Part shown: in pieces, positions 9,082 through 52,167 of the stretch
How the letters are laid out: each line of letters begins with the position of its first letter
Numbering within the stretch: position 1 is the stretch's first letter
DNA from: Magnetococcales bacterium
Lineage (GTDB): Bacteria > Pseudomonadota > Magnetococcia > Magnetococcales > JADFWT01
NCBI GenBank assembly: GCA_015233785.1
Contig: JADFWT010000001.1
Location: 27,752 to 91,751, forward strand
Length of the DNA stretch: 64,000 nucleotides
Direction: 5' to 3'
The notes under the pieces: model-generated
Database searches by the model: none
What the model was told of the DNA's origin: nothing
Seen by the model: only the letters and a program-made list of their open reading frames with translations
Made by a program: the position numbers and the translations under genes

Positions 9082-9109
9082 TTGATCCCTTCCAGTATCT
9101 TAATAATTT
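9082..9109 (+). promoter_or_regulatory. Candidate sigma70-type promoter for the first TPR-GT41 array
   Basis: TTGATC (9082-9087), a 16-nt spacer, then TAATTT (9104-9109), about 24 nt upstream of the ATG at 9133. This is a sequence match only. Confidence 0.3.
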
Positions 9110-9132
9110 GTACCCAATGCTCACTGACCGCG

Positions 9133-11358: not shown

Positions 11359-13538
11359 ATCCGCAACAGCCCATCACCCTTGAGCAGGCGTTGCAATGGG
11401 CCATCGACCACCATCAGGCGGGACGCTTTCAGGAAGCGGAGTCGCTCTATCGTCAGATTTTAAATGCCGACCCCAACCAGCCGGATGCCCTGCATCTACT
11501 CGGTGTCATGGCCCATCAGGCGGGGCAGGCCCAGGATGCCGTGCCGATGATCCAAAAGGCTCTGGCCCTGCGCCCCAGGCAGGCGGAAATGCATAACAAT
11601 CTTGGCAACGCCCTCCGGGATCTCGGCCAGATTGAAGCCGCGATTCAAAGCTGTCGTCGAGCCATTGCCCTCAAAAGACGCTTCCCAGAGGCGTACAACA
11701 ATCTGGGTACCGCGCTCTTGCAGCAAGGGGCCTTTCAGCAAGCCGTAAAGCAATTTCGCAAGGCACTCTCCCAGCAGCCGAACTATGTCGCCGCTCACAA
11801 AAACCTCGGCGTTGCCTTGCGCTCCCTGGGCAACACGGACGCGGCCATCGCCAGCCTGCGCCGGGCATTAAACCTCAAGCCCCACGACCCGGAAATTCAT
11901 ATCAATCTCGGCGGACTGCTCACCGAAACGGCACGCTTCGATGAAGCCATAACACATCTGAATCGAGCCGCAGAACTGGCCCCGGATCACCCGGAGAATC
12001 TACACAATCTGGCCCTATACCATCAGAGACAAGGGTGCTTGGCAGAAGCCATCTCCCACTATCACAAGGTGCTGGCGCACCGCCCCAAGGATGCCGAAGC
12101 ACACTTTAATCTGGCCCAGGCTCTGGATAAAAATCGACAATTGGAAGAGGCCATTCAGAGCTACCGGAAGGCCCTCACCTTGGATCCTGGCCATCTGGGC
12201 AGCCATGATAACCTGGCCATTGTGCTGAGCCGAACCGGTATGCTGGATGAAGCCTTGATCCACGCCGAACAGGCCGCCGCCGGCGGGCAGCCCGCCATGA
12301 TTAAAAACTGGCTCAACCTGCAACTCGCCCATCCCGAGACCACATATGATGCACTGTTTAAAGCCTGCGTGAACTGGCGCGATGCGGCCGTGGATCCGGC
12401 CTGCAAACCCTTGATCCGTCAGATGCCCAAGGAGACTCCACCCCGGCTAAAAATAGGCTACCTCTCCTCTGATTTTCGTGACCATCCGGTGGGGCGTAAC
12501 GTCGCGCCGCTGCTGATGAACCACGATCACGACCGGTTTGAAATCACCCTCTACGCCGAACCTCCCAGAGAGGACCACTGGACCGAGCGATTCCAGAAGG
12601 CCGCTGACCGATGGCAAAATATTGCCGGTCTCAGCGACCTTCAGGTAGCCCGGCGTATCCGCAAAGACGGCATCCACATCATGGTCTATCTGGCCGGGCT
12701 ATTCGATACCAACCGCGTACAGGTGGCCGCCCACCGCCCAGCCCCCATTCAGGTGAGCTACCACAGCGGCACCACCACCGCCCTGGAGCAGATGGATTAC
12801 TGGTTCACAGATGAGGCTCTGCACCCGCCGGAGGCTACCTCGGAACAGTTCAGCGAGACCCTGTTCCGCCTGCCCTGTTTTTACGCCTATCCAGAGCCGG
12901 AGCAGGCCCCACCCATCGAACCGCTCCCAGCGCGCCAAAATGGCTACGTCACCTTTGCATCCCTGAATAATCTAAGTAAAATCAATAATAAGGTTATCCA
13001 ACTATGGGCCGCAATTCTGCATGGTGCAGCCGATGCCAGACTGATGCTTAAATATCGGGATCACTTGGATATTCCCTATCTTAAACAATGCATCATAGAG
13101 AGATTCCAGAAGCACGATATCGATACCGAACGGCTGATTCTGATCAGCGCTTTGGAGGACCACCCAAGCCATATGGCCCGCTACCATCAGGCCGACATCG
13201 CCTTGGATCCCTTCCCTTTTACCGGTGCCACCACCACGTTTCAGGCGCTCTGGATGGGGGTGCCGGTGATCACCTTACTGGGAAAGAACTTTATTGGACG
13301 CATGGCAGGGGATATTTTAATCCATACCGGACTGAAAGAACTGGCAACCGAAAGCAGCGACGCCTATTGTAAACAGGCTCTGGCGCTGGCCGGCGACCTG
13401 GATCGCCTGGAGAGGCTACGTCATACGCTGCGCGATCAACTGCTCGCCTCTCCCATATGTCATGAAAATCAATACGCCCAGAGTGTAGAAAGCAGTTACC
13501 AAACTATGTGGCGACAACGAATGAAAGCGAGAACCTGA
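11355..13538 (+). CDS. TPR-GT41 (OGT-like) glycosyltransferase, paralog 2
   Basis: 727-aa ORF with an ATGA start/stop overlap with paralog 1. Motifs: KIGYLSSDFRDHPVGRNVAPL and DIALDPFPFTGATTTFQALWMGVPVITLLG. Confidence 0.9.
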   Translation: MNPQQPITLEQALQWAIDHHQAGRFQEAESLYRQILNADPNQPDALHLLGVMAHQAGQAQDAVPMIQKALALRPRQAEMHNNLGNALRDLGQIEAAIQSCRRAIALKRRFPEAYNNLGTALLQQGAFQQAVKQFRKALSQQPNYVAAHKNLGVALRSLGNTDAAIASLRRALNLKPHDPEIHINLGGLLTETARFDEAITHLNRAAELAPDHPENLHNLALYHQRQGCLAEAISHYHKVLAHRPKDAEAHFNLAQALDKNRQLEEAIQSYRKALTLDPGHLGSHDNLAIVLSRTGMLDEALIHAEQAAAGGQPAMIKNWLNLQLAHPETTYDALFKACVNWRDAAVDPACKPLIRQMPKETPPRLKIGYLSSDFRDHPVGRNVAPLLMNHDHDRFEITLYAEPPREDHWTERFQKAADRWQNIAGLSDLQVARRIRKDGIHIMVYLAGLFDTNRVQVAAHRPAPIQVSYHSGTTTALEQMDYWFTDEALHPPEATSEQFSETLFRLPCFYAYPEPEQAPPIEPLPARQNGYVTFASLNNLSKINNKVIQLWAAILHGAADARLMLKYRDHLDIPYLKQCIIERFQKHDIDTERLILISALEDHPSHMARYHQADIALDPFPFTGATTTFQALWMGVPVITLLGKNFIGRMAGDILIHTGLKELATESSDAYCKQALALAGDLDRLERLRHTLRDQLLASPICHENQYAQSVESSYQTMWRQRMKART

Positions 13539-15652
13539 TGAGCGAAGAGGATTTTGTTGAGCGGGAAATGTCCGTTGAAAGTGCGTTGTCGATGGGCATC
13601 TCTTACCATCAGAAAGGCAACCTGCAAAAAGCGGAGTGGCTCTATCGGAAGATTCTTGAAAAGGTTCCCGACAATCCCGATGCCCTCCACTTTTTGGGCG
13701 TCATCGCCTATCAGGTTAAACAGCCGGATGTCGCCATTCCGCTGATTAAAAAAGCCATTAAAATACGCCCCAATCACGCCGAATCCCATAGCAACCTGGG
13801 GGCGGCACTGCGGGATGCCGGCCAACTGGATGCATCTATCGCCAGCTGTCGCAAGGCACTGGAACTGCGTGCTAATTTCCCTGAAGCCCAGAACAATCTC
13901 GGTGCTGCTCTACTGCGTCAGGATAAATTGAATCGGGCCAGCGCGGCCTTTCGAACCGCCATTGCCCAAAACCCGGAATACCATGCGCCGCATAAAAATC
14001 TGGCCAATATTCTGCACCGTCAGGGCCGCTCGACAGAGGCCGCACTGAGCCTGGAAAAAGCCATCAATCTGAGCCCTAACGACCACGAATCTTACTGCAA
14101 CATGGCCACCATTCTTTCCGAACTCGGCCAGTTTCAAGCGGCCGTTGATCACGCTCAAAAAGCACTGAATCTCGCACCAACCAACGTCAGCGCCCACAAC
14201 ACCATGGGCCTCATCCTCAAAAAAGTCGGCATTCTTGATGACGCCGAAATTGCGTTTCGGAACGCCATCAGCATTGCCGACGGAGCAGGAATCAGCCATA
14301 GCAACCTGGGTGAGATTCTGCTTTCTCAGGGCCACCAGAAAGAGGCGCTGGCCTCCCATAAACGCGCACTGGATATCAAATTACGTGTCAACAACGTTAA
14401 AAACTATCTTCGCGCTTTGCACTATCAAGAGGGCCTGAGCAACGAAAAGCTCTATCGAAAATGCCGCAAGTGGACCAATAAACTGGTAAAATCCGAAACC
14501 ATCACCCCCATGCCTCCACCGCTGATGAAGGATAGCCCCGAGCGGCTGCGCATCGGCTATCTCTCCTCCGATCTGCATAATCATCCCGTGGCGTTCAACA
14601 TGCTTCCGGTGATGGAGAATCACAACCATGACCAGTTTGAGATCTTTATCTACTACGACTCACCCATAAGTGACACCCCCGACTCATCCATGCATGGCAC
14701 GCTGACAGATAGTTTCCAGCAGTATGCCGACCACTGGCGAACAGTGGGAGCGATCAATGACCAACAGATAGCCGAGAAGATCCGCGCAGACCGAATTCAT
14801 ATCATGGTCTACCTGGCCAGTACGTTTGATAATAACCGATTGCTGGTCCCGGCCTACCGGCCCGCACCGATTCAAGTCAGCTATCATAACTGCTCCTCCT
14901 CCACCATCAACCAGATGGATTACTGGCTCACCGACAGCGTGATCCATCCCCCTCTGGATACCGAAGAGCTTTTCTCCGAGGATCTGGTGCGGATGCCCCA
15001 ATTCTACATCTATCCACCGCCCATCAACCTGCCCGACCCAGGGCCGTTACCCAGTAAGAAAAACGGTTACATCACCTTTGTCTCCCTCAACAATCCATCC
15101 AAAATCACCGGGCAGGTGGTGGAGACATGGGGCCGCATCCTCAAGGCGGTACCCGATGCGCGGTTATTGCTGAAATATCGCAACTTTTATAAAAGCAAGG
15201 CGGTGCTCAAGCGCCTGAAAGAACGCCTCGAAGGGATGGAGATAGATCCAGAACGGCTGGAGTATCGCACCGCCATGGACGACCATCCCGACCATCTTGC
15301 CAACTATCTGGATGCCGATATCGCCCTGGATCCCTTCCCATTTACCGGGGCCACCACCACCTTCCAGGCGCTCTGGATGGGGGTGCCGGTGGTCACATTA
15401 ATGGGCAAGCGCTTCATCAGCCGCATGGCCACCGACATCATCGTCCATGCCGGACTTGAAGAACCCCTTGGTGCTGATAACCTGGATGAATATGTTCGCA
15501 AAGCCGTCGCACTGGCAGAAAACCCCACCCGCTTAGCCGAGCTGAGATCCTCTCTTAGGGAACGCATTGCACAATCTCCACTTGTGGACGGTCCACGTTA
15601 TACCCGTAACTTGGAGAAGACCTATCTAGAACTCTGGGACAAACGGCGCTAA
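13538..15652 (+). CDS. TPR-GT41 (OGT-like) glycosyltransferase, paralog 3
   Basis: The ORF is open from 13508. ATG 13538 (MSEEDF) overlaps the upstream TGA by 1 nt, so I prefer it. Motifs: RIGYLSSDLHNHPVAFNMLPV and DIALDPFPFTGATTTFQALWMGVPVVTLMG. Confidence 0.85.
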   Translation: MSEEDFVEREMSVESALSMGISYHQKGNLQKAEWLYRKILEKVPDNPDALHFLGVIAYQVKQPDVAIPLIKKAIKIRPNHAESHSNLGAALRDAGQLDASIASCRKALELRANFPEAQNNLGAALLRQDKLNRASAAFRTAIAQNPEYHAPHKNLANILHRQGRSTEAALSLEKAINLSPNDHESYCNMATILSELGQFQAAVDHAQKALNLAPTNVSAHNTMGLILKKVGILDDAEIAFRNAISIADGAGISHSNLGEILLSQGHQKEALASHKRALDIKLRVNNVKNYLRALHYQEGLSNEKLYRKCRKWTNKLVKSETITPMPPPLMKDSPERLRIGYLSSDLHNHPVAFNMLPVMENHNHDQFEIFIYYDSPISDTPDSSMHGTLTDSFQQYADHWRTVGAINDQQIAEKIRADRIHIMVYLASTFDNNRLLVPAYRPAPIQVSYHNCSSSTINQMDYWLTDSVIHPPLDTEELFSEDLVRMPQFYIYPPPINLPDPGPLPSKKNGYITFVSLNNPSKITGQVVETWGRILKAVPDARLLLKYRNFYKSKAVLKRLKERLEGMEIDPERLEYRTAMDDHPDHLANYLDADIALDPFPFTGATTTFQALWMGVPVVTLMGKRFISRMATDIIVHAGLEEPLGADNLDEYVRKAVALAENPTRLAELRSSLRERIAQSPLVDGPRYTRNLEKTYLELWDKRR

Positions 15653-17731
15653 ATGAACCAGCCTCTCACCATCGAACAGGCCTTCTCTCTGGCTGTTCAG
15701 CATCACGAAGCCGGAGAACTGGAGACGGCAGTAGGGATCTATCAACAGATTCTGACCGCCTCTCCCGGACAGCCCGATACACTGAACAACCTCAGTATCG
15801 CCCTCAAGGATCTGGGCGATCCAGAGGGCGCCGTAGCCTCTGCTAAAGAGGCCATTGCCGCCCGACGCAACTACCCGGAAGCCCACAATAATCTCGGCAA
15901 CGCCCTGCGAGAGACCGGCCGCTTGAAAGAGGCCGCCATCAGCTATCGGACCGCCCTGAAACAGCGCTCCCGATATGCCGAAGCCCATAACAATCTCGGC
16001 ATCGTAGAGAAAAGCCTGGGACGCATGAAAGAGGCGGTGATCAGCTACCGGAAGGCGCTGGCCATTCAGCCCCGGTTTCCCGAAGCTCTAAACAACCTCG
16101 GCAACGCCCTCATCGCACTGGGCGAGGTGGAACAGGCCCAAGCCTGCTTTGAAAAAGCACTGATCCAAAAGCCCGACTACGCCGAAGCCCATAACAACTT
16201 CAGCAACATGCTGCGAGAAGCGGGCGACTTTAAAGCGGCCATCAAGCAGGCAGAGCAGGCTCTGACACTGAAACCTGACTACGCCGAAGCCCACAATAAT
16301 CTGGCCGCTGCCCACAGCCTCAACCAACGTACCGATCTGGCCCTACCCCACTTTGAGAAGGCCCTGACCCTCAATCCCCAGCACGCCGAATCCCACAGCA
16401 ACCTTGGCAACAGCCTGACCCGACTGGGATGTTTTGATCAGGCTATGCACCACTATCAGGCGGCACTCACCTGCGATGCCGATCTGGAACGGGTGAAGAA
16501 TCTTGTCAACACCATGCTCTATGTGCCCGACCTACCTCAAAAAACCATCTTTGAGGCCCACCAGCGCCACATCAACGCTGCACTTCCGACCGGTATCGCG
16601 CCGCTGCTGAAACCGGGCCGGTTGCCACGCTTGGCGAAAGGAAATCGGCTCAAAATAGGCTATCTCTCCTCGGACCTCAGGGATCATCCGGTGGGGCGAA
16701 ACGTCCTGCCGCTACTCACCCATCATGATCCGAAACAGGTGGAGATTACCGTCTATGCCCAGTGGGATGCAGATGATGAGATCGCTCGTAAATTTAAACA
16801 GGCGGTGCAACGCTGGCGGCCCATCCACGCGCTGAATGACCAACAGGCAGCACAGCGAATCCATAAGGATGGTATCCATATTCTGGTCTTTCTGGCCCCG
16901 CTGTTCGACACCAACCGACCTCTGATTGCTGCCTACCGCCCCGCCCCCATCCAGGTGAGCTTTCACAATGGGGCCACCACCGGACTCGATGCCATGGACT
17001 ACTGGATCACCGACAACGTGCTCCACCCGGAAGGCGCCGTGCAGGAGTCCTTTACCGAACAGCTCTTTCGACTGCCGGTGTTCTACAACTACCCCCCCAT
17101 TGAAGATGCGCCGGATCTGTCGCCTCTACCGCTGGAGCGTCAAGGCCACGTCACCTTCGGCTCTCTCAACAACCCCTCCAAGATCAACACACAAGTCATT
17201 GACCTATGGGCCGGAATTCTCAACAAGATTCCAGATTCCCGGTTGATTCTCAAGTACCAGGATGCCCTGCATGATCCCCCGGTCAAAGCGCGCATTCTGG
17301 AGCAATTCGAAGGGCTGGGTATCCATGGGGATCGCCTGGAGTTGATCTGCGAAAAAGATGGACTCTCCCAGCATCTGGCGCTCTATCAACGCGTGGACAT
17401 TGCACTGGATCCATTCCCATTTACCGGGGCCACCACCACCTTCCAGGCGCTCTGGATGGGGGTACCGGTCATCACGCTACTCGGTGAGAGCTTTATCCAA
17501 CGCATGGCGGCGGACATCATCATCCATAGCGGCCTGCAAGAGCTGGCTGCGGAGAATAAGGAACAGTACCAATCCCTGGCGGTGGAACTGGCCAATGCCC
17601 CCGCTCGACTGGCAACCCTGCGTCAGGAGCTGAGACAACGCCTGATGGACTCTCCCATCTGCGATGCGTCGCGCTATGCCGAACATGTTGAACGGGCCTA
17701 TCTTGAGATGTGGCAGCGCCTGGATGGTTAA
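15653..17731 (+). CDS. TPR-GT41 (OGT-like) glycosyltransferase, paralog 4
   Basis: 692-aa ORF whose ATG directly abuts the upstream TAA. It has six consecutive TPR units with (Y)(A/P)EAHNNLG, plus KIGYLSSDLRDHPVGRNVLPL and DIALDPFPFTGATTTFQALWMGVPVITLLG. Confidence 0.9.
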   Translation: MNQPLTIEQAFSLAVQHHEAGELETAVGIYQQILTASPGQPDTLNNLSIALKDLGDPEGAVASAKEAIAARRNYPEAHNNLGNALRETGRLKEAAISYRTALKQRSRYAEAHNNLGIVEKSLGRMKEAVISYRKALAIQPRFPEALNNLGNALIALGEVEQAQACFEKALIQKPDYAEAHNNFSNMLREAGDFKAAIKQAEQALTLKPDYAEAHNNLAAAHSLNQRTDLALPHFEKALTLNPQHAESHSNLGNSLTRLGCFDQAMHHYQAALTCDADLERVKNLVNTMLYVPDLPQKTIFEAHQRHINAALPTGIAPLLKPGRLPRLAKGNRLKIGYLSSDLRDHPVGRNVLPLLTHHDPKQVEITVYAQWDADDEIARKFKQAVQRWRPIHALNDQQAAQRIHKDGIHILVFLAPLFDTNRPLIAAYRPAPIQVSFHNGATTGLDAMDYWITDNVLHPEGAVQESFTEQLFRLPVFYNYPPIEDAPDLSPLPLERQGHVTFGSLNNPSKINTQVIDLWAGILNKIPDSRLILKYQDALHDPPVKARILEQFEGLGIHGDRLELICEKDGLSQHLALYQRVDIALDPFPFTGATTTFQALWMGVPVITLLGESFIQRMAADIIIHSGLQELAAENKEQYQSLAVELANAPARLATLRQELRQRLMDSPICDASRYAEHVERAYLEMWQRLDG
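15875..16411 (+). repeat. 102-nt periodic intragenic tandem repeat (six TPR units) inside paralog 4
   Basis: The block GCCGAAGCCCA(C/T)AA(C/T)AA(C/T)CT and its variants recur at 15875, 15977, 16079, 16181, 16283 and 16385. The spacing is exactly 102 nt, i.e. 34 codons. Confidence 0.9.
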
Positions 17732-17743
17732 CCGGACCACGGA

Positions 17744-19642
17744 TCAGGTGAGAAACTCACGCCAGAGCGGCTCCAGAGAGTCCCGATAGTTCTCCCAGGC
17801 CATCACCGAACTGCTGTAGATGGGCTTACGAACCTGACTGACGCTGGCTGTGGTCACCACCCGCTTGTTCTTATGAAACGCCATGCAGCGCGCATCCCAC
17901 CCCAGGTTGCAGTGCTCCAGAAGCAGGCGGGTCTCCCGCTCCTGATCCGCCACCAGCGCCTCGTAAGAGAGATCATAAATTCTGCCGGGCGCCACCCGAT
18001 GCCAATGCGCCATCAACGACTGATAGGCCCGGTAGTAACGCCCCAACTCGGAGAGGTGGTAGGCGTAGGGATGCGGCTCGCTGAACAGGGTCTTGAAGAT
18101 GGAAAAACAGGTGCCCATGGGATGGCGCACGCAGTGGATAATCTTCGCCTTGGGCAGCGCCGAGAGAATCCATCCTATATGCATATAATTATTGGGCATC
18201 TTATCAACAATATAGGGCGACTCAGGCGCACAGGCATGCAGTGCCTCCAGATAGCGCTGGCCCATGGTGCGAATCTGCTCGCCACTCAAGGCCCGGCTAT
18301 CCTGCCGCCAGCTCACCGGCGGACCAACTCGCCCTCCTGAGTTATGAGAAATCTCCCGCCAGAGCTTCTGCACCTCCAGCGGCATCTGTACCCGCTCTCC
18401 GGCGCCATACACCTGCGGGTGGCTGGAGAGTATCTGCTCAGCCAACGTGGTGCCGGAACGAGGCATGCCGAGAATAAAAATCGGTGCTTTATCCTCAACA
18501 CCGAACCTCTGCCAGCGAGCCAGGAAATCGGCATCCATCATCTCTTGGAGAAATCCAAAGCGCGCCTCGTCCTCCGTGACAAAGTAGCGATGACGCGTCC
18601 GCTCCATGCGATTGCCCGCCGCCAGATGATCAAAGGCGCGACGATGATCCCCAAGATCCTCATGCAGCTTGCCTAACGCAAAGGCTAGATTGGTGCGCTC
18701 AAAACGGCTGATGCCGCGCTTGGTGTAGAGCCGCTGCATCGCCTCGGTATAATGATTGGTCTCCCGCATCCGCCCGCAGGAGACCATGTGCCGATAGGCG
18801 ATGGCGCAAGAGGGATCGATGGTGACCGCCTGCTCAAAAGCTGTCCGTGCCTCCTCCAGACGCCCCAACCCTTTGAGTGTCACCCCAAGATTGTTGTAGG
18901 TGGCGGCTTGTTGCGGGTTCAGCTCCAGTGCCTGCCGATAGCACACCTCCGCCTCTTCCAGTCGCTCCAGCATCCGTAATGTATTGCCGAGATTACCCAG
19001 GGCATCCGGGTAGTTGGGACGTATCTTCAACGCTTGACGAAAATGGTCGTGGGCCTCCTGGAAGCGGTTTTTGGAGACCAAAAGATTGCCCAAATTATTA
19101 TGGGCAGCAGCCAGAGTGGGCTTGTGATGAATGGCGCGCTCAAAACTGCGCATCGCCTCTTGAATCTGACCGCGATCCTTATGGGTCAGCCCGAGATTGT
19201 TGTGGGCCTCCGCCAGATCGGGCTTAAGAACAATCGCCCGATGCAAGGCCACCCCCGCCGCCTCCAAACGCCCCTGAAGACGCAACAGATGGCCCAAATT
19301 GTTATAGGCCATGGGGTTGTTGGGCTGTAGCGCCAACGCCTTGCGGTAGCAGGCCATGGCACCGCTTCTATCTCCCAAATCAAAACGCGTGATGCCAAGA
19401 TTATTCAGCGCCGGAGCCATCTTCGGATTGGCGGCCAGGGCATATTCAATCAACCGCCTGGCATCCTGCATCCGGCCCTGCTGCCGAGCAATGAGACCCT
19501 GTCTGTGCAGCGCCTCGGCATAGTGGGCGTCCGCCGGTGAGATGGCCTCAAATCGGGCCAGCGCTTCATCCAATGCCCCCTGCTGATGCAGCGCCATTCC
19601 CTGCTGAAAAATCGCCTGAAAGTTGGACGCCTGGGCCACCAT
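17744..19642 (-). CDS. TPR repeat protein fused to a sulfotransferase domain (TPST/RaxST-like PAPS-binding motifs)
   Basis: The ORF is open to 19714. I prefer ATG 19642 (MVAQASNF), which has GGGGGAG about 7 nt upstream. N-terminal TPRs are followed by FILGMPRSGTTLAEQIL (5'-phosphosulfate-binding loop) and IIHCVRHPMGTCFS (3'-phosphate motif region). Confidence 0.85.
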   Translation of the reverse strand: MVAQASNFQAIFQQGMALHQQGALDEALARFEAISPADAHYAEALHRQGLIARQQGRMQDARRLIEYALAANPKMAPALNNLGITRFDLGDRSGAMACYRKALALQPNNPMAYNNLGHLLRLQGRLEAAGVALHRAIVLKPDLAEAHNNLGLTHKDRGQIQEAMRSFERAIHHKPTLAAAHNNLGNLLVSKNRFQEAHDHFRQALKIRPNYPDALGNLGNTLRMLERLEEAEVCYRQALELNPQQAATYNNLGVTLKGLGRLEEARTAFEQAVTIDPSCAIAYRHMVSCGRMRETNHYTEAMQRLYTKRGISRFERTNLAFALGKLHEDLGDHRRAFDHLAAGNRMERTRHRYFVTEDEARFGFLQEMMDADFLARWQRFGVEDKAPIFILGMPRSGTTLAEQILSSHPQVYGAGERVQMPLEVQKLWREISHNSGGRVGPPVSWRQDSRALSGEQIRTMGQRYLEALHACAPESPYIVDKMPNNYMHIGWILSALPKAKIIHCVRHPMGTCFSIFKTLFSEPHPYAYHLSELGRYYRAYQSLMAHWHRVAPGRIYDLSYEALVADQERETRLLLEHCNLGWDARCMAFHKNKRVVTTASVSQVRKPIYSSSVMAWENYRDSLEPLWREFLT

Positions 19643-19717
19643 GACACGCTCCCCCTGCTGAAGTGATCGAAAAAGAGATATTAACACGCATGACGACGCG
19701 GTTGAATGCGACAATTA

Positions 19718-22087
19718 TCAATTTGTCGTCAACGCCTTAAAAACCTTCTCCGCACCAGGTGGAATGCTGGTGAGATGCAGCTGCAACGTCCCCGCCTCTT
19801 CATCCTGGGCCATCACCTTGCCGTAGAGCTGATCGGAGATAGAGAGACCATCGGCATCAAACAGCTCCAGTTGCAAATTGGTCAGACGCCGCGCCTTGAG
19901 ACGGGTTGCAATCTCCAAGAGCTTACCGTCCATGGCGCTGATACGACCGGCATGACGCGCCTTATCACTCCGTTTGCCCTCCAGAACCGCCATCATCACC
20001 TCCGGGCCATTCTCCAGAAACTTTAACTCAGGAGGCCTCGGCTCCGGCAACTGAATGCCGTAAAGGCCTCGAATACCGCCAATCAGGTAGATGGGAACCG
20101 GCTCGGGAACCCCCTTTAAGGAGACCCGCCATTCATCATCGATGCGGGCCAGATTGTTGCACCCCTTCAGGGTGGTCTCAGAGATCAACACCTGCCCACC
20201 AATGGTTTGCGACTCCACCCGTGCCGCCAGATTGATGGTCGCCCCCACGACGCCGTACTTGGCCCGCAGATCCGAACCGATATTTCCAGCTACCACCGAT
20301 CCGCTGTTGATGCCAATCCCCATGGCCGCTTCGGGAAAGCCACGAGCACCGAACTTGGCATTCACCTCCGGCATCGCTTTCTGCATCTCCAGGGCGCAGG
20401 CCACCGCCCGCTGGGGATCATCCTCATGGGTAACCGGCGCGCCAAACAGCGCCAGAATGCCATCGCCAAGGAACTCAATGATGGTGCCGCTATATTTCAG
20501 GATGATCTCGGTCATGCGCTCCAGATAGATGTTGAGCATGGAGATCACCTCTTCCGGCGGCAAGCGCTCGCTAATGGCGGTGAAGCCCCGCAGGTCGGAC
20601 ATCATCACCGTCACCTCCTTCTGCTCACCCCCCAGACGCAACCCCTCGGGTCGATCCAGAATCGATGCCACCACCTCATCGGACATATAGCGCCCAAAGG
20701 TCTTGCGAATAAACAGGTTGGCCCGATTCAGCCCCTCATTGAGGTGCTTCTGCTCAAACAACATATGCTCCAACTCTTTGTTGAGCTGACCCTTCTCCTC
20801 CGTGGCCTGCTCGGCACTCTCCAAAGCCTTCTGCAACTCCTCTTGCGTGTGTTTGCGCTCCACCGCCACCTGCAACACAAACGCCAGTTGGTCGATCACC
20901 TCACGCGCCTCATCGGTGATCTGTATCGCCCCTTCCAGATGGAGAAAAAAGAGCGCAAAAACAGTATCACGCCCCGGTGAGAAGAGCGGAATCAACAGTC
21001 GTGCGCCATCCAGATCTTCGGGAAACTGCTCCTCATAGCCATGCTGGTGGTGCACCTTCCAACTACTGCGATCCTGAGAGAAGTAACGCATGAACTGGAG
21101 GGGGAGCATCACCACTTCGCCCGCATAGCCGCTCTCGGCACTCAGACGAAGCCCCTGACCATTGTCGCGAAGGGTGTAGAACTCCATGCCGGCGGCGGGA
21201 AGCATTCGGCGAGTAATCTCCAGAAGCGCTTCCACAATCTGGTCAAACTCCCGGTGGGCAACCATCGCCTCTTTAATATCCCGCAACATATCGTTGAGCG
21301 TGGTCAGCCGTCGCACATCGGTACTATCTGCCGCTTTCAGATAGAGCCCGCAATCCAATTTTTTCAGGCGGCTGAAAATCTCGGGGACCAGGTGACCGGG
21401 AATAATGGAGCCGTGCTGGGGGGCTATCATGCCGAGCTCCAGCTTCTCCAGCTTCAAAAGCCCATTGAGCAGCACCTCTCGGCTAGGCATGTAGTGCTCG
21501 TGAAATGGGCGCATCGCCTCAAAATAGTCGGCATCCCGAGCCACCAATGTCCAGTCGTCGGTAAAGCCGCCAAACAGATCGCTGGAGAATAGAATGCGAC
21601 TCTCCTCATCATAGGTGCAGAACGCCCCAGGAAAGTGCAAATAGGGGGTGAAGACAAATTTCAGCCGACGACTGCCAAGATCAAGATGCCAGCCGTGATC
21701 CTGCTCGATACACTTTAATGGCATTTTGAGATCATAATGCTTAAGCAGTACGTTGGCCCGCCAATGGCTGAGAAGATAGGCATCATCCCGCGTCACCATG
21801 GCGTCAATGGTGGGCATGATGGCTGTGATGTCGGGATCCTGATGCTGGCAGAGAAAATATCGAATATTACTGAATTCGGTAATCTTCTTGATCTTTTCCA
21901 GGGTGTGATCAAAGGTGAGCTTGGAGCCGGGATCAAACAGAACCGATTGATCGCCGTTCTCAATCAGATAGGCGTGGCACTGAAAAGGATCCCCAGGAAG
22001 ATAGTGGCCAACCCACCAGGTGCGATCTGCAATCTCAATGGGATGATCGGCGGAGGCGTATTGAATGTGATCTAAAGGGTCGCTCAT
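19718..22087 (-). CDS. Class III nucleotidyl cyclase with N-terminal metallo-beta-lactamase/flavodiiron-like domain and GAF-like linker (cyclase 1)
   Basis: The ORF is open to 22171, but I prefer ATG 22087 (MSDPLDHIQY). The N-terminus reads WWVGHYL...CHAYLIENGDQSVLFDPG...LCQHQDPDITA...HFPGAF...SSDLFGG...APQHGSII. The catalytic domain reads VTVMMSDLRGFT...IIEFLGDGILALFGAP...KYGVVGATINLAARVES. Confidence 0.85.
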   Translation of the reverse strand: MSDPLDHIQYASADHPIEIADRTWWVGHYLPGDPFQCHAYLIENGDQSVLFDPGSKLTFDHTLEKIKKITEFSNIRYFLCQHQDPDITAIMPTIDAMVTRDDAYLLSHWRANVLLKHYDLKMPLKCIEQDHGWHLDLGSRRLKFVFTPYLHFPGAFCTYDEESRILFSSDLFGGFTDDWTLVARDADYFEAMRPFHEHYMPSREVLLNGLLKLEKLELGMIAPQHGSIIPGHLVPEIFSRLKKLDCGLYLKAADSTDVRRLTTLNDMLRDIKEAMVAHREFDQIVEALLEITRRMLPAAGMEFYTLRDNGQGLRLSAESGYAGEVVMLPLQFMRYFSQDRSSWKVHHQHGYEEQFPEDLDGARLLIPLFSPGRDTVFALFFLHLEGAIQITDEAREVIDQLAFVLQVAVERKHTQEELQKALESAEQATEEKGQLNKELEHMLFEQKHLNEGLNRANLFIRKTFGRYMSDEVVASILDRPEGLRLGGEQKEVTVMMSDLRGFTAISERLPPEEVISMLNIYLERMTEIILKYSGTIIEFLGDGILALFGAPVTHEDDPQRAVACALEMQKAMPEVNAKFGARGFPEAAMGIGINSGSVVAGNIGSDLRAKYGVVGATINLAARVESQTIGGQVLISETTLKGCNNLARIDDEWRVSLKGVPEPVPIYLIGGIRGLYGIQLPEPRPPELKFLENGPEVMMAVLEGKRSDKARHAGRISAMDGKLLEIATRLKARRLTNLQLELFDADGLSISDQLYGKVMAQDEEAGTLQLHLTSIPPGAEKVFKALTTN

Positions 22088-22424: not shown

Positions 22425-24653
22425 ATGGCAACGCCTCCCACTCCCACGACACTCATTGAGCTATTCCACCTGGGCGTAGAACACCACCATGCCGGACGAC
22501 TCCCAGAAGCGGAGACACTCTACCGGCAGATTCTGGAAGCCGACCCCTTGCAGGCCGAAGTGTGGCATCAAATAGGCCTGCTTGCCTACCAGTTGGGCCA
22601 GCCCCAACAAGCGACCCAACTGATCGGAGAAGCCCTGCGCCTGCGCCCCGACGATGCCGCCGCCCATTGCAACATGGGCAACGCCTTGGCCGACTGCGGC
22701 GCGTGGGATCAAGCCGTGGCACACTTGCACCAGGCAACCACCTTGCAGCCCGCCATGCCGGAAGCCCATCTCAATCTGGGCAACACACTGCGCAGGCGCG
22801 GCGGACCAGGGGATCTGGAGGCCTCCCTGGAGAGCTGTCAAGCGGCCATCCGGCTGCGTCCAGCCATGCCGGAAGCCCACCTGAACTGTGGCAATGCCTT
22901 GAAAGCGTTGGCGCGTTACGATCAAGCCGTCACAGCCTTTGGCAGAGCGATCCGGTTGGCCCCCGATTATGCCGATGCCTACAGCAATCTCGGCAGCACG
23001 CAACAAGCGTTAGGCCAATTGGATGAGGCCATTGCCAATCATCATCATGCCATCTCCCTAAATCCCAACCAGGGACTCTTTCATGGAAATCTTGGCCATG
23101 CATTGCGGGAGAAAGGGCTACTTGAACAAGCACTTAAAAGCTTCCGCACCGCCGCCACACTGAGCCCGGACCAGGCCAAAGTTCATGACGATCTTGGTCA
23201 AATTCTCTCGCAACTGGCATGCCCAGACCAGGCCCTGGCCTGCTTTGAGACCGCCCTGAAACTGGAGCCGGATAGCGCTCACCTCCTCCAGCAGATGGCC
23301 CTACAACTCAACGATATGGGGCGTACCGAAGAGGCGCTGACATCGCTCCAACAAGCAGTGGCATTGGCCCCAGACCGCCCTGAACTACACGCCTCCTTGA
23401 TCTTTACCAAAGACATGACGCCGGGTATTGAGATACAGGCTCAACAAACAGAGCGACAACGCTGGGTGAAGCGCTACTGCTCCAAGGTCCATGCCGGGAC
23501 GCACCACCCTAACAATCCTGACCCGGCACGGCGATTACGAGTCGGCTATGTCTCTGCCGATTTTCATCTCCACTCGGCAGCCTCTACCTTCGGGGCCTGC
23601 CTGCTGCACTACGATAGAGATCAATTCGAACTGTACGCGTACGCCAACAACCGCACACGCCCCGATCAACCGGATGATGCCGTCACCGAAAAGTTTCGGC
23701 GCTCGGTGGACCACTGGCGGGATATCGCCCATCTGGACGATGATGCCCTGGCCACTTTGGTTCGCCGAGACCGCATTGATATTCTGGTGGATCTCTCCGG
23801 TCACTCCACCGGCAACCGGCTGGAGCTCTTCGCCCGGCGTCCAGCCCCTATTCAATGCACAGGCTGGGGCTACATCCAGGGAACCGGCATGAAGACCATC
23901 GACTATCTGATTACAGATCCAGTGATTCTTCCTCCGATTCAGCGTCCAACAATTACGGAAGAGGTACTGGATCTACCTTGCGGCGTGCATCTGCAACCCC
24001 TTGGAAAATGGCCGGAACCTGCGCCCATTCCAGCCTTGAAGCGTGGCTTCATCACCTTTGGAACCTTCCACCGCACCGACAAGATCAACGCCAAAACACT
24101 CAAGCTCTGGGCCAAGGTTTTGGCAGCGGTTCCCCATTCGAGACTTCTGATCAAAATTCCCAAAAATAGCACCGATTTTTTTGGGGGCTATTATCGGCAG
24201 AGCTTCAAGAGTCACGGCGTTGATCCTCAACGTATTGAGCTTTTAGGGGCCACCTCTCAATTTGATCATCTGGCCTGCTTCAATAAGGTGGATATCGCCT
24301 TGGACCCCACGCCGCACTGTGGCGGCGTTACATCGCTGGAGGCACTTCGCATGGGAACGCCGGTAGCAACGCTCTGGTGCGAGACCATCGCAGGCCGGCT
24401 CTCCGCATCATTTAACGCCACCCTGAACTTGGCATCCTGGACCGCAGAGTCCGAGTCGCAATTCATTGAGATTGTTAAGATAAAATCATCCGATATTTCA
24501 AACCTATCCAAGCTAAACAGCAGCCTTCGAGAGCGCTTTGACCGCTCTATCCTGGGAGATCATAAGCTCTATATGCACCATCTGGAGGCACTCTACCGGC
24601 AGATCTGGCAACGATGGGTAGCCGACCATCTCCCCAGCCATGACGCAAGCTGA
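22425..24653 (+). CDS. TPR-GT41 (OGT-like) glycosyltransferase, paralog 5 (subfamily B)
   Basis: 742-aa ORF with variant motifs RVGYVSADFHLHSAASTFGACLL and DIALDPTPHCGGVTSLEALRMGTPVATL. Confidence 0.85.
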   Translation: MATPPTPTTLIELFHLGVEHHHAGRLPEAETLYRQILEADPLQAEVWHQIGLLAYQLGQPQQATQLIGEALRLRPDDAAAHCNMGNALADCGAWDQAVAHLHQATTLQPAMPEAHLNLGNTLRRRGGPGDLEASLESCQAAIRLRPAMPEAHLNCGNALKALARYDQAVTAFGRAIRLAPDYADAYSNLGSTQQALGQLDEAIANHHHAISLNPNQGLFHGNLGHALREKGLLEQALKSFRTAATLSPDQAKVHDDLGQILSQLACPDQALACFETALKLEPDSAHLLQQMALQLNDMGRTEEALTSLQQAVALAPDRPELHASLIFTKDMTPGIEIQAQQTERQRWVKRYCSKVHAGTHHPNNPDPARRLRVGYVSADFHLHSAASTFGACLLHYDRDQFELYAYANNRTRPDQPDDAVTEKFRRSVDHWRDIAHLDDDALATLVRRDRIDILVDLSGHSTGNRLELFARRPAPIQCTGWGYIQGTGMKTIDYLITDPVILPPIQRPTITEEVLDLPCGVHLQPLGKWPEPAPIPALKRGFITFGTFHRTDKINAKTLKLWAKVLAAVPHSRLLIKIPKNSTDFFGGYYRQSFKSHGVDPQRIELLGATSQFDHLACFNKVDIALDPTPHCGGVTSLEALRMGTPVATLWCETIAGRLSASFNATLNLASWTAESESQFIEIVKIKSSDISNLSKLNSSLRERFDRSILGDHKLYMHHLEALYRQIWQRWVADHLPSHDAS

Positions 24654-24762
24654 TCGTGGAATCATAAGGCCCATCTCTTTAAACGACTGAAAAGAACGCT
24701 TAGGATGAGTGCCTATCGAACCCATAGACCGTTCACCACCGCTGGAATCATCCGAGCCCACC

Positions 24763-26988: not shown

Positions 26989-28469
26989 ACGTCGTCCCCA
27001 AATATTCTATGCCGTTTGGTATTCTGACGCTCATACTGCTGGATATCAATACGCTTGGACATGTAATCCTGCCACACTTCACGACGACGACGTGCAATGT
27101 AACCCCTCTCCACGCCCTCCAAACGAATATTCTCCTTGGACCAGCGAATATCAAATCCGTCAAAATCGTCGTGAAACAGCTTCTCCTCCAGACATTGACG
27201 GTAGAGCGCCGTTCCAGGCAGAGGGTTGACAATGGAGAATGAGAGACGATCAAACCCATACTGGGTCGCCCGCTGAAAAGTGTGATCTATCTGCTCTTTG
27301 GTCTCACCAGGAAAACCCACCATAAAGACCCCCTCGGTAATCAATCCTGCCTTCTGGCACTTTTCCACAATCTTCTCAATACGATCCAAATTGACCCGCT
27401 TGGCCACCATGCGGTCCTGCACTTCCGCATTGGCACTCTCTACGGCAAGAAAAATCTTATTGAATCCCGCCTCCGCCATCAGTTCGATCATCTCATCGTC
27501 AAATGCGTTGACCTCCCCGCCACTGGGTACCTGGTAACGGAGGTCAGGCGTCTCCCGAATCACCCGCCGGAGCAACGTTTTGACCCGTTTGCGATGGATA
27601 AAAAAATTGTCGTCCCAAAAATGGATCTCGTCGGGATTGTAACGCGCCCGATTGTGGTGAATCTCGGCCATCACGTCGTCGATTTCACGCAGCCGATAGT
27701 GTCGCCGACTGGTCATGGGAGCCGTGCAGAAACCGCAGTTATGGGGACAGCCGCGAGAGGTGAGCATAATCATGAAGCGCTTCTCTCCTTCATGCACCTC
27801 ATAGTCGGCCAACCCGGCCTGCCAATACCGCTGAAGATCGACCTTGTCCCAGGCAGGCCAGGGTAGATCCTCCACCAAAGGGGGCTGGTAGTCCTCCACC
27901 TGATGAAAGCCTGCTGTGGTTTTGTAGATAAGCTGTCCGACCCTATCCAGAGGATGCCCGCCGTTGATCGCCCTGATCAGCCTTGGAAGCGCCAAATCAG
28001 ACTCGCCAAAGAGCAGATAGTCCACATGGGGATCAAGCACCATCTCCGGCATTCCAGAGGGGTGCTGCCCCCCCATCACCAGATGGGCTTCCGGGCATGT
28101 CTGTTTGGCCATCTTTGCCAATTTCAACACATCCTGAGCCCTGTTTGAAAAGGGACAACTGATCCCTATCATGTCAGGCTTATAGGCTTCCAGTTTGCGG
28201 CGGATGGCCGCATCGTCCAGGCCATAATAGATGGTACGACCCACCACACGCTCCTGCTGATACCCCTCAATCAAGGCATCAAGAATCTCCACCTGCACAT
28301 CAAGCAACTGAAGCTGCGCAGCCAGATAGGCTAATCCAAGAGGTGGAACAGCCAGCTTACGCTCCCTGGAACCCTCTTTGGTGAGGGTGATCTTGCCCGC
28401 TGGAGCGATAAGAAGCACCCGGCGGATCGGAGAACGTAAAGTAGGATAGAGTGCATGTGGAGTAGTCAT
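26985..28469 (-). CDS. B12-binding-domain radical SAM enzyme (class B radical SAM)
   Basis: 494-aa ORF. The N-terminus is a Rossmann-like B12-binding region (RVLLIAP...DMIGISCPFSN...HLVMGGQHPS). The radical SAM cluster motif is SRGCPHNCGFCTAP (CX3CX2C). Its stop overlaps the convergent paralog 6 stop by 4 nt. Confidence 0.85.
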   Translation of the reverse strand: MTTPHALYPTLRSPIRRVLLIAPAGKITLTKEGSRERKLAVPPLGLAYLAAQLQLLDVQVEILDALIEGYQQERVVGRTIYYGLDDAAIRRKLEAYKPDMIGISCPFSNRAQDVLKLAKMAKQTCPEAHLVMGGQHPSGMPEMVLDPHVDYLLFGESDLALPRLIRAINGGHPLDRVGQLIYKTTAGFHQVEDYQPPLVEDLPWPAWDKVDLQRYWQAGLADYEVHEGEKRFMIMLTSRGCPHNCGFCTAPMTSRRHYRLREIDDVMAEIHHNRARYNPDEIHFWDDNFFIHRKRVKTLLRRVIRETPDLRYQVPSGGEVNAFDDEMIELMAEAGFNKIFLAVESANAEVQDRMVAKRVNLDRIEKIVEKCQKAGLITEGVFMVGFPGETKEQIDHTFQRATQYGFDRLSFSIVNPLPGTALYRQCLEEKLFHDDFDGFDIRWSKENIRLEGVERGYIARRRREVWQDYMSKRIDIQQYERQNTKRHRIFGDDV

Positions 28470-52163: not shown

Positions 52164-52167
52164 CCGG

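Follow-up and report, generated by a model that had tools for sequence, protein, structure and literature searches.

Which acceptor is sulfated by the enzyme encoded at 17744-19642 of the window (the whole stretch of 64,000 nucleotides analysed here), and which of the neighbouring genes belong to its function? We consider a protein-directed, PAPS-dependent sulfotransferase the most likely function. The best explanation, to which we give a probability of about one half, is a soluble cytoplasmic PAPS-using O-sulfotransferase whose protein substrate would be docked by its TPR domain and which would be a member of a TPR-guided modifier battery. The gene and its parts are located as follows.

17744-19642, minus strand: TPR-sulfotransferase gene, 632 aa, stop codon included (ORF and translation)
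18779-19621, minus strand: TPR superhelix, residues 8-288 (Pfam TPR_1/TPR_2, repeat register)
18485-18778, minus strand: conserved helical linker from TPR to catalytic domain, residues 289-386 (homologue alignments, AF2)
17747-18484, minus strand: Sulfotransfer_3 catalytic domain, residues 387-632 (PF13469, AF2, Foldseek, profile against PDB)
18443-18469, minus strand: 5'-phosphosulfate-binding (5'-PSB) loop GMPRSGTTL with R395, residues 392-400 (invariant in the family)
18395-18406, minus strand: motif GAGE, whose E416 is the candidate catalytic base (invariant Glu, profile alignment)
18101-18130, minus strand: 3'-phosphate-binding (3'-PB) region VRHPMGTCFS, residues 505-514 (R506 and S514 invariant)

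The start codon given in the earlier note is correct, since a Shine-Dalgarno sequence (GGGGAG) is situated 7 nt upstream of the ATG at 19642. The product comprises eight TPR repeats followed by the helical linker and the Sulfotransfer_3 domain; six of the repeats keep an exact 34-residue register with the motif xxxxNNLG, further N-terminal repeats being degenerate. The Pfam profile Sulfotransfer_3 (PF13469) matches residues 387-583 at 172.7 bits (E-value 1.8e-50), the gathering score being 27, and the match spans profile positions 1-215 of 216. Judged by this score the assignment is far beyond chance, and the description of the ORF as a TPR-sulfotransferase is borne out by the reading frame, the TPR repeats and the PF13469 match. 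Neither a signal peptide nor a hydrophobic segment was found on direct reading of the N-terminus, the TPR helices beginning from the start. A Magnetococcales MAG protein with the name 'tetratricopeptide repeat protein' has the identical sequence (100%).

In the AF2 model of the full-length protein (pLDDT 91.6, pTM 0.82) TPR, linker and catalytic domain are confidently predicted as a single unit; the model of the catalytic domain reached a pLDDT of 88.6 and a pTM of 0.89, and the linker appears as confident helices in both. The linker is conserved, too: homologue alignments of TPR-sulfotransferases with residues 1-330 continue beyond the last TPR repeat, and conserved columns reach residue 348.

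Among proteins of solved structure TPST1, TPST2 and the tick TPST were the best relatives in a single-sequence search (3e-9). The family profile run against the PDB gave the same enzymes (TPST1 5e-20, tick TPST 1.3e-19, TPST2 4e-18), followed by the OLS/CurM sulfotransferases at about 1e-11, behind the TPSTs by 8-9 orders of magnitude, and by all others at 2.5e-7 or worse. With the model of the catalytic domain as query, ranks 1-13 of the Foldseek search were all TPSTs (E-values of 6e-12 to 5e-10), with 20-24% identity. Animal TPST1 and TPST2 (PDB 5WRJ, 5WRI, 3AP1) and tick TPST (8W5Z) have Pfam PF13469 in common with the window protein and presumably the PAPS donor as well. A TPST-like catalytic domain, as proposed before, is thus supported by profile, predicted fold and conserved catalytic residues.

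In the alignments from single sequence and family profile GMPRSGTTL pairs with GVPRSGTTL of TPST1, the PRSGTTL core being identical, so that the loop was rightly recognised as a 5'-PSB loop of the TPST type. VRHPMGTCFS pairs with VRDGRASVHS of TPST1 in both alignments, too; the earlier note had the 3'-PB region right with VRHP..T, while the residues conserved in the family are R506 and S514 and not the Thr. By the Negishi criteria (PMC6637879) a PAPS sulfotransferase should have a residue of positive charge in its 5'-PSB and an invariant Ser in its 3'-PB, with a His or Glu between the two motifs as the catalytic base. These residues are found here as R395, S514 and E416, none of which varies in the family alignments; E416 is situated between the two PAPS motifs and aligned by profile with the second Glu of the TPST1 motif CGEE. 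Together with K481 and the C-terminal S600 the predicted catalytic set appears intact; the Arg of PRSG, the Glu of CGEE, the Lys of the D/N-K motif (NKDP) and the 3'-PB Arg and Ser of TPST all have equivalents. Compared to the family, the window protein carries an insertion of 8-10 residues (the ISHNSGGRVGPP region) after the Glu base.

TPSTs are type II membrane proteins with a luminal catalytic domain (PMC6094398). The window protein does not share this topology; it lacks the transmembrane anchor and has a TPR superhelix and linker fused N-terminally instead. A possible further difference concerns substrate recognition. In TPST2, for which residue roles are said to have been assigned by Teramoto et al. 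in 2013, R101 and R105 reportedly bind acidic residues of the substrate. Where the family profile aligns with R102 and R106 of TPST1 it shows no conserved Arg, the window protein having V418 and L422/E423 there, in a loop whose alignment is uncertain. We counted this apparent lack of conservation against our best explanation.

The closest natural fold matches of the TPR part of the full-length model were the TPR domains of SPINDLY and OGT (E-values of about 1e-14 to 1e-15), with 28% identity to the OGT TPR over about 340 columns. The architecture logic of these GT41 enzymes, an N-terminal TPR superhelix and a C-terminal transferase, is the same, whereas their catalytic fold is GT-B and that of the window protein a sulfotransferase fold. 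By analogy with OGT, the TPR domain, which is confidently modelled as joined to the catalytic domain, may dock a protein substrate and present it to the sulfotransferase cleft. The acceptor hydroxyl could be that of Tyr, as in TPST, of Ser/Thr, or of a sugar placed by a neighbouring glycosyltransferase. With a TPR-docked protein substrate the enzyme would therefore take its place in a battery of protein modifiers that are guided by TPR domains. That the substrate is a protein we infer throughout, since in the literature searched for bacterial TPR-sulfotransferases no paper characterising any family member was found. TPR domains can also serve as scaffolds instead of substrate docks, which we weighed against the best explanation, too.

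The context of the gene is a 55-kb island with 15 OGT-like TPR-GT41 paralogues and one TPR-arginine methyltransferase. The following parts of it concern us here.

9082-17731, plus strand: four consecutive TPR-GT41 (OGT-like) genes (Pfam Glyco_transf_41 and TPR)
19643-19717, minus strand: 75-nt gap between cyclase and sulfotransferase genes, holding the Shine-Dalgarno sequence GGGGAG
19718-22087, minus strand: ODP di-iron metallo-beta-lactamase-fold protein with class III nucleotide cyclase (PF19583 1e-59, PF00211 3.9e-27)
22425-26988, plus strand: two TPR-GT41 genes, divergent from the cyclase/sulfotransferase pair
51862-53904, plus strand: TPR-protein arginine methyltransferase fusion (Pfam PrmA 1.1e-9, PRMT_C 6.1e-9, TPR)

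The last of the four GT41 genes (15653-17731) faces the sulfotransferase gene in convergent orientation, with 13 nt between their ends. On the other side the distance of 75 nt to the cyclase gene on the same strand, reported earlier, was confirmed, and a terminator scan of this gap found no terminator-like hairpin. Expression of the sulfotransferase and of the cyclase gene upstream is probably coupled. At a second locus (L081) the C-terminal fragment of a cyclase precedes a sulfotransferase orthologue of 61% identity, with which an orthologue of the GT41 gene 15653-17731 (E 2e-223) is likewise convergent; the order cyclase, sulfotransferase, convergent GT41 is conserved there. Two other loci with Magnetococcales paralogues (L012, L016) had no neighbours in common with the window. 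An orthologue search of metagenome contigs with search patterns in the TPR returned generic TPR proteins alone. A recent swap of the TPR from the neighbouring GT41 genes could be ruled out, since the TPR region scores 194-357 bits against other TPR-sulfotransferases and at most 151 bits against the TPRs of the GT41 proteins in the window.

Within its family the window protein is unremarkable; the family is a very large bacterial one, with 18,332 clusters at E <= 1e-30. At E <= 1e-10 there were 7,679 homologues, the best 120 being nearly all TPR plus PF13469 with 93-100% query coverage; homologues of the same architecture show 35-61% identity over the full length, and plasmid-borne members with the NCBI name 39-40% in the catalytic domain. 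The N-terminal TPR array, the C-terminal PF13469 domain and the full-length homology to named members place it in the NCBI 'Tetratricopeptide repeat-containing sulfotransferase family protein', from which there is no essential difference in architecture, only the genomic setting of the window copy being unusual. In our survey of the neighbours at 80 loci of family members about 65 had no informative neighbour, a further point that we held against our best explanation. All-against-all clustering of the flanking ORFs found no strongly conserved neighbour family (at most 7 of the 80 loci), and extra TPR-sulfotransferase paralogues were nearby at 15. Autotransporter genes lie beside family members at three loci (L020, L040, L046) and on plasmids of Enterobacter 638, Kluyvera and Thalassospira. 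Because of these neighbours the targets would probably be proteins modified in the cytoplasm before export. The adjacent passengers are rich in Ser, Thr, Gly and Asn, contain few Tyr in four of six cases (the exceptions being L020 and L046) and have a low acid content except at L046; this speaks against acidic-Tyr sites of the classical kind in these passengers.

The most serious alternative, which we think clearly less probable than a docked protein substrate yet worth keeping in mind, is a non-protein acceptor such as a polysaccharide, an LPS or capsule sugar, a glycolipid or a small metabolite, as for NodH, KpsS or Stf, the TPR serving only for assembly or regulation. NodH acts on a lipo-chitooligosaccharide and the CurM/OLS sulfotransferases on beta-hydroxyacyl-ACP; their domains have the superfamily fold and the PAPS motifs in common with the window protein. 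PF13469 also includes NodH, a GlcNAc-6-O-sulfotransferase (PMC11625862). The plasmid search gave no NodH hit at E <= 1e-3, and mycobacterial Stf9 and Stf1 as well as heparan-sulfate 3-O-sulfotransferases are detectable fold relatives in Foldseek. We counted both the presence of NodH in PF13469 and the action of the next-best structural relatives, CurM/OLS, on acyl-ACP against the best explanation. Moreover, most family loci have no protein-modification neighbour, and the glycosyltransferases in the window could equally belong to a glycan pathway. However, the carbohydrate sulfotransferases all trail the TPSTs, with E-values at least 8 orders of magnitude worse in the profile search and at least 4 worse in Foldseek. 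The TPR domain belongs to the OGT/SPY type and is confidently modelled with the catalytic domain. The neighbouring glycosyltransferases are of the GT41 type, known for protein glycosylation (OGT, SPINDLY, HMW1C), the TPR-arginine methyltransferase of the island can act on proteins only, and genes for polysaccharide export or polymerase were not found in the window.

Within the preferred reading of a protein-directed enzyme, the sulfate might be placed on an O-linked sugar installed by the adjacent TPR-GT41 and not on tyrosine. We treat this sub-case separately because a glycoprotein acceptor contradicts the tyrosine chemistry proposed earlier, and regard it as rather unlikely, somewhat behind the non-protein acceptor. 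TPR-GT41 genes flank the sulfotransferase gene on both sides, and they adjoin or lie near family members in several phyla (10 of the 80 loci), with no GT41 nearby in the other 70. In Enterobacter and Kluyvera the sulfotransferase gene overlaps that of a TPR protein carrying a glycosyltransferase annotation, and an autotransporter whose passenger is rich in Ser and Thr follows downstream; two loci (L020, L056) encode fusions of the sulfotransferase with a domain of this Enterobacter-type protein. However, the label 'Glycosyl transferase family 8' of the Enterobacter protein found no support from Pfam, PDB or NCBIfam; there was just one signal, a weak match of the heptosyltransferase kind (E 0.008). 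A further point against a sugar acceptor is that the nearest enzymes in fold and catalytic set sulfate a phenol and not a sugar.

The earlier note had proposed a system of the RaxST/RaxX/RaxAB type. By this analogy the enzyme would sulfate tyrosines (GDYPP, DDYLP) of an acidic ORF in the cytoplasm, and HlyB, HlyD and TolC components (1-6373) would then export the product. The genes in question are:

1 to about 1670, minus strand: TolC-like outer-membrane factor whose ORF continues beyond the window start (Pfam OEP in two stretches, 2.1e-51)
2080-4503, plus strand: HlyB-type T1SS ABC transporter with non-catalytic C39-like domain (HlyB 2e-103, TIGR01846)
4490-6373, plus strand: HlyD-family T1SS adaptor with N-terminal cyclic-nucleotide-binding domain (cNMP_binding 4.4e-20, HlyD_3)
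6600-7595, minus strand: orphan acidic G/P/D-rich ORF of 331 aa (translation, Tyr-centred repeats)

RaxST and the window protein are both bacterial, cytoplasmic and members of PF13469, and a T1SS is located somewhere nearby in both cases. RaxST comprises 267 aa with Arg-11 at the N-terminus and no TPR. For an orthologue we set at least about 40% identity and a similar length of about 267 aa; comparison of the family profile with RaxST (hhalign) yielded a probability of 89%, an E-value of 2e-6 and 18% identity over 107 columns, and the window protein has 632 aa with the TPR fusion. The relation to RaxST is thus a remote one. The rax genes are packed into an operon of 5 kb, in which the double-glycine precursor has 60 aa and RaxB contains a peptidase, and raxST homologues elsewhere are not linked to raxA/B (PMC6637879). 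In the window, the sulfotransferase gene is about 11 kb away from the T1SS and on the opposite strand to the ABC transporter and HlyD genes (2080-6373), with seven genes between. No short (about 60 aa) RaxX/PSY-like double-glycine precursor was seen beside it, and the gaps of 75 nt upstream and 13 nt downstream leave no room for a RaxX-like gene. A conserved linkage of the family to T1SS could be ruled out, too (1 of 80 loci).

Of the parts listed in the earlier note the ABC transporter, HlyD and TolC components are present; the C39-like domain of the transporter is non-catalytic, Ser3 taking the place of the catalytic Cys in the alignment with the C39 domain of LahT. The transporter resembles HlyB (2e-103) more than PCAT1 (4e-70) in the PDB and matches TIGR01846 (HlyB type) with 468.6 bits compared to 268 bits for bacteriocin_ABC, the latter match not including the N-terminal domain. 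Leader-peptide processing as by RaxB is therefore not to be expected from this transporter. The HlyD protein (NCBI name HlyD family T1SS adaptor) scored 267 bits with TIGR01843, above the cut-off, and no relatives of this cNMP-HlyD adaptor were found in metagenome contigs.

The acidic ORF 6600-7595 contains no Lys, Arg or Cys, is rich in Gly and Asp and ends with E-V-V, traits which we take to fit a T1SS cargo. A good Shine-Dalgarno sequence (GGGAGG) lies 8 nt before its ATG, and it converges on the 3' end of hlyD with the stop codons 227 nt apart. A T1SS cargo is a possible identity. The first 30 residues contain no double glycine, and no RTX GGxGxD repeats were found in any window ORF of at least 100 aa. 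The coding score of 0.088 is the best of the six frames, yet marginal, at the bottom of the gene range; a search of 5.8 billion proteins gave no homologue, and a protein collection that includes the neighbouring HlyD does not contain the exact sequence. Its tyrosines had been regarded as abundant and acidic in context. The Tyr content of 4.2% is ordinary, and their acidic neighbourhood corresponds to the compositional expectation (shuffle P 0.5-0.65). There are three copies of YVDP, and GDYPP and DDYLP lie in a 27-aa repeat of 18/27 identity. GDYPP, the sole RaxX-like element seen, is identical to part of the sulfated site of RaxX around Tyr-41 (HVGGGDYPPPGANPKHDPPPR, PMC4646787) and had a chance of 0.008 in shuffles of the ORF, a post hoc test; GDGPNGDYPPQQDG and GDDPNDDYLPQQDG are the candidate substrate peptides. 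The sole tie of the ORF to the sulfotransferase is their proximity of about 10 kb. Despite the TPST-like catalytic domain, the repeated tyrosines and the cargo-like ORF next to the T1SS, we consider sulfation and export of this ORF in the manner of RaxX highly improbable in view of the remote RaxST match, the HlyB-type transporter, the distance and strand of the genes, the single T1SS among 80 family loci and the composition, marginal coding score and missing homologues of the ORF.

A bolder extension of the preferred reading, which we put forward tentatively as it is less likely true than false, would apply to the whole family (at least 18,000 clusters). Its members would be true protein O-sulfotransferases, choosing their targets via the OGT-like TPR and sulfating Tyr or Ser/Thr in the cytoplasm before export; in the window 15 GT41s, one PRMT and this one sulfotransferase would together make up a battery of TPR-guided modifiers linked to cyclic nucleotides, with the adjacent T1SS cargo carrying RaxX-like GDYPP repeats as one possible target. 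Protein sulfation would then be a widespread bacterial post-translational modification, beyond a curiosity of Xanthomonas. In the literature searched, RaxST is the only characterised bacterial tyrosine sulfotransferase, and the abundant family described here has a catalytic domain closer to the animal TPSTs than that of RaxST, fused to a putative OGT-type docking domain. If the enzymes sulfate proteins, tractable model operons are at hand, e.g. on pENTE01 of Enterobacter sp. 638. The island of TPR-fused modifying enzymes is a more unusual feature of the window than the sulfotransferase gene; a literature search for Magnetococcales GT41 arrays gave no paper. Its divergent GT41 pair (22425-26988) is 63% identical mutually and about 33% identical to the other paralogues.

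The open reading frame at 17744-19642 on the minus strand encodes a TPR-sulfotransferase of 632 aa. The ATG at 19642 assumed as its start in the earlier note is likely the right one, since GGGGAG is found 7 nt upstream of it; the longest form of the frame begins with a TTG at 19714. Multiple TPR matches (Pfam) cover residues ~10-290, and a Sulfotransfer_3 domain (PF13469) was detected at residues 387-583 (E 1.8e-50, 172.7 bits, cut-off 27), containing the following motifs:

18443-18469, minus strand: GMPRSGTTL, 5'-PSB motif (residues 392-400)
18101-18130, minus strand: VRHPMGTCFS, 3'-PB motif (residues 505-514)

Because neither a signal peptide nor a hydrophobic segment is present in the N-terminal sequence, the protein should be located in the cytoplasm, where PAPS is made. 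A 100% identical protein, named only "tetratricopeptide repeat protein", is encoded on a 93-kb contig of a Magnetococcales MAG.

The likeness of these motifs to tyrosylprotein sulfotransferases (TPSTs) had been observed correctly, and TPSTs ranked first by sequence, profile and fold. In a single-sequence search of the PDB, human TPST1 (3e-9), tick TPST (4.3e-7) and TPST2 (7e-7) were followed by the sulfotransferase domains of OLS (4e-6) and CurM (1.8e-4). A family profile of 18 catalytic domains retrieved TPST1 (5e-20), tick TPST (1.3e-19) and TPST2 (4e-18), then OLS and CurM (~1e-11) and all other sulfotransferases at 2.5e-7 or worse. With an AlphaFold2 model of the catalytic domain (pLDDT 88.6, pTM 0.89), ranks 1-13 in Foldseek were all TPSTs (E 6e-12 to 5e-10, TM ~0.62), and CurM ST (6e-8), OLS ST, Stf9, Stf1 and the rest were placed below. 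Residues R395, E416, K481, R506 and S514 are invariant in the family alignments; T598 and S600 do not vary among the 18 catalytic domains and show conservation of 90% or more in 31 full-length sequences. The key 3'-PB residues are R506 and S514 and not the "T" singled out before, and E416 is aligned with the second Glu of "CGEE" in TPST1 (profile alignment). Roles of residues R78, E99, K158 and S285 of TPST2 were reportedly described by Teramoto et al. in 2013. The general sulfotransferase features given in PMC6637879 (basic 5'-PSB residue, 3'-PB Ser, His or Glu base between the two motifs) are all found among the family-conserved residues of the TPR-sulfotransferase.

The resemblance to RaxST, also proposed in the earlier note, turned out to be remote. 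RaxST (sequence from the supplement of PMC6637879) belongs to PF13469 as well (E 2.3e-14), and the family profile matched it with a probability of 89% (E 2e-6) and 18% identity over 107 columns, spanning 5'-PSB to 3'-PB only. RaxST has the loop GLPRAGSSL with its Arg as residue 11 and carries no TPR, whereas our protein has GMPRSGTTL with R395 and is TPR-fused. Due to this remote alignment and the missing TPR in RaxST, orthology to RaxST was rejected. The TPR-sulfotransferase is nearer to animal TPSTs than RaxST is.

At least 7,679 homologous proteins were found at E <= 1e-10, and nearly all of the best 120 among these combine TPR and PF13469. When 1.84 billion cluster representatives were searched exhaustively with a profile, 18,332 reached E <= 1e-30 and 31,068 reached E <= 1e-10; with one genome scanned per species, at least 600 stretches matched, 597 of 600 encoding relatives. 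Some members (P0121, P0131 and others) possess 2-5 sulfotransferase domains per polypeptide (up to 2,819 aa). In NCBI, members (plasmid copies among them) are labelled [quoted passage not shown], and our literature search revealed no paper characterising any of them.

The genomic context was inspected in 80 loci, which come from Pseudomonadota, Thermodesulfobacteriota, Verrucomicrobia, Planctomycetota, Nitrospinota and others; 47 of the 80 have a length of at least 15 kb. A single locus (L008) has an ABC+HlyD pair close to the sulfotransferase, and a TolC-like ORF likewise occurs in 1 of 80, which speaks against the suggested link to type I secretion (T1SS). In 10 loci TPR-GT41 genes adjoin the sulfotransferase or lie no more than 10 kb away, and extra TPR-sulfotransferase paralogues are present in 15; no other neighbour family is common to more than 7 of the 80. 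Autotransporters flank the gene in three loci (L020, L040, L046). On the plasmids pENTE01 of Enterobacter sp. 638 (L082 7702-13915) and pKATP2 of Kluyvera (L084), the stop of the TPR-sulfotransferase gene overlaps the start of the gene for a TPR protein annotated as "glycosyl transferase family 8", and an autotransporter comes next; on Thalassospira pCSC3H3 (L087 3729-7723) the autotransporter comes first and the TPR-sulfotransferase 36 nt later. The TPR-sulfotransferase of pENTE01 is ENT638_RS21830 and its autotransporter RS21840. Relatives of the "GT8" protein adjoin or are fused to the sulfotransferase in four loci (L020, L052, L056, L059), and the sulfotransferase ORF of 1,142 aa in L020 (3602-12598) also matches the Enterobacter TPR protein annotated as glycosyltransferase. 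The annotation of the "GT8" protein as a glycosyltransferase was not borne out, a weak heptosyltransferase-like match (E 0.008) being the only signal. The autotransporter passengers are rich in Ser/Thr/Gly/Asn, mostly have few Tyr and are acid-poor except in L046; by composition they look more like glycosylation-type substrates than like classical TPST sites.

The window itself represents an island of enzymes fused to TPRs. Its TPR-GT41 (OGT-like) genes, fifteen within ~54 kb (9082-62629) and mostly on the plus strand, start at 9082, 11355, 13508, 15653, 22425, 24709, 30453, 34704, 39494, 42114 (minus strand), 50262, 54546, 56910, 58975 and 60755. Further genes are listed below, the first three located among the TPR-GT41 genes:

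26985-28469, minus strand: B12-binding radical SAM protein
44419-45354, plus strand: FkbM-family methyltransferase
45382-48075, minus strand: response-regulator-GAF-GGDEF-EAL protein
51862-53904, plus strand: TPR-arginine methyltransferase fusion (PrmA and PRMT_C matches)

Twelve of the GT41 catalytic domains share 46-58% identity, two form a pair with 63% identity and only ~33% identity to the rest, and one is an outlier; by these domains, the GT41s are old paralogues. No paper on such a TPR-GT41 array in Magnetococcales was found in the literature search. The arginine methyltransferase ORF and the GT41 ORF before it share ~300 nt, therefore the true start of the former is probably later.

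Within this island the sulfotransferase gene forms a minus-strand unit of two genes with the cyclase gene (19718-22087) that precedes it. The cyclase carries at its N-terminus a di-iron metallo-beta-lactamase domain of the ODP family (E 1e-59), a possible O2/NO sensor. The gap of 75 nt between these genes was confirmed and contains no terminator-like hairpin; the two are probably co-transcribed. The nearest relative, P0003 (61% identity), is encoded in a locus (L081) with a matching gene order: a C-terminal cyclase fragment, the sulfotransferase and a convergent orthologue of the GT41 at 15653-17731 (E 2e-223). In L081 the latter two are separated by a called PPK2 (polyphosphate kinase 2 family) gene (L081 2404-3261), whereas the window has none and its sulfotransferase and GT41 are 13 nt apart. 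The window and two other Magnetococcales paralogue loci have no neighbours in common. The TPR region scored 194-357 bits against other TPR-sulfotransferases but at most 151 bits against the TPRs of the neighbouring GT41s, which argues that the TPR-sulfotransferase fusion is old.

A full-length AlphaFold2 model (632 residues, 31 homologues, pLDDT 91.6, pTM 0.82) consists of helix pairs at residues 2-288, more helices up to 378 and the alpha/beta sulfotransferase domain. Its best natural matches in Foldseek, among designed consensus TPRs, were the TPRs of SPINDLY and OGT (E ~1e-14 to 1e-15; OGT 28% identity over ~340 columns). The reading we favour, with a probability of roughly 0.5, is that the protein acts in the cytoplasm as a PAPS-dependent sulfotransferase and that its TPR domain would select a protein or glycoprotein substrate, with Tyr, Ser/Thr or a protein-linked sugar as candidate acceptors. 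In its Magnetococcales host it would be one of many TPR-guided modifiers, its expression coupled to that of the cyclase gene. Alternatively it might be that the acceptor is no protein, as PF13469 includes NodH and most family loci are uninformative; this we consider a serious rival, though a less probable one.

Sulfation of an exported protein as in the RaxST/RaxX system had been proposed from these genes at the window start:

Running off the window start, minus strand: TolC/OEP ORF
2080-4503, plus strand: ABC transporter with Peptidase_C39 match (Pfam)
4490-6373, plus strand: HlyD-family T1SS adaptor (Pfam)
6600-7595, minus strand: acidic ORF of 331 aa

ABC, HlyD and TolC are thus present, but the transporter is of HlyB type and not of RaxB type. 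Its top PDB match is HlyB (2e-103), PCAT1 scoring 4e-70 with the N-terminal domain absent from the alignment, and it scored 468.6 bits with TIGR01846 (HlyB type) versus 267.7 bits with the peptide-cleavage model bacteriocin_ABC. Since these matches are HlyB-type and Ser3 takes the place of the catalytic Cys when the sequence is aligned with the C39 domain of LahT, the N-terminal domain is classed as C39-like, resembling that of HlyB. HlyB-type systems export large unprocessed proteins, not double-glycine peptides. A Gln/Pro-rich C-terminal tail of ~90 residues was also seen, its coding region overlapping the hlyD start by 14 nt. A cyclic-nucleotide-binding domain (E 4.4e-20) is found at the N-terminus of the HlyD adaptor, and the window encodes three class III cyclases (19718-22087, 28760-30388, 37075-39195); secretion may be regulated by cNMP.

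The acidic ORF has the Shine-Dalgarno sequence GGGAGG 8 nt before its ATG and a coding score of 0.088, the highest among its six frames yet hardly above the lowest value seen for genes (0.233 +/- 0.053, minimum 0.080). A search of 5.8 billion proteins detected no homologue at E <= 1e-3, and the ORF's exact sequence is absent from the protein collection, in which the adjoining HlyD is present (MBF0587508.1). It contains 17.8% G, 15.1% P, 14.8% D and 14 Tyr (4.2%), neither Lys/Arg nor Cys, and ends with E-V-V. Such an acidic, Gly/Asp-rich protein is a reasonable cargo candidate for a T1SS. The tyrosines lie within repeats, namely three YVDP and a 27-residue unit occurring twice (18/27 identity) with GDYPPQQDG and DDYLPQQDG; candidate peptides for sulfation would be GDGPNGDYPPQQDG, GDDPNDDYLPQQDG and the YVDP repeats. 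A DDDDDDDHDDDGGDHGHHGHH tract is present, too. The acidic context claimed for the tyrosines did not hold, acidic residues being no more common near Tyr than in shuffles (at -1 P 0.51, within +/-5 P 0.65). RaxX is sulfated at a site with this GDYPP, too (HVGGGDYPPPGANPKHDPPPR; shuffle probability of GDYPP in the ORF 0.008 in a post hoc test), but with an HlyB-type transporter bearing Ser3 and ~10 kb proximity as the sole tie between ORF and sulfotransferase, a RaxX-like scheme is very unlikely.

Two other ORFs have no Pfam match, one at 48846-50237 (plus strand, 463 aa) with a high coding score (0.324) and one at 62754-63776 (minus strand) with only 0.097. Over the window (1-64000), read on the plus strand, the GC skew falls below zero in every 2-kb step except one (cumulative -3.34) and the AT skew is mostly positive, although most genes are on the plus strand.
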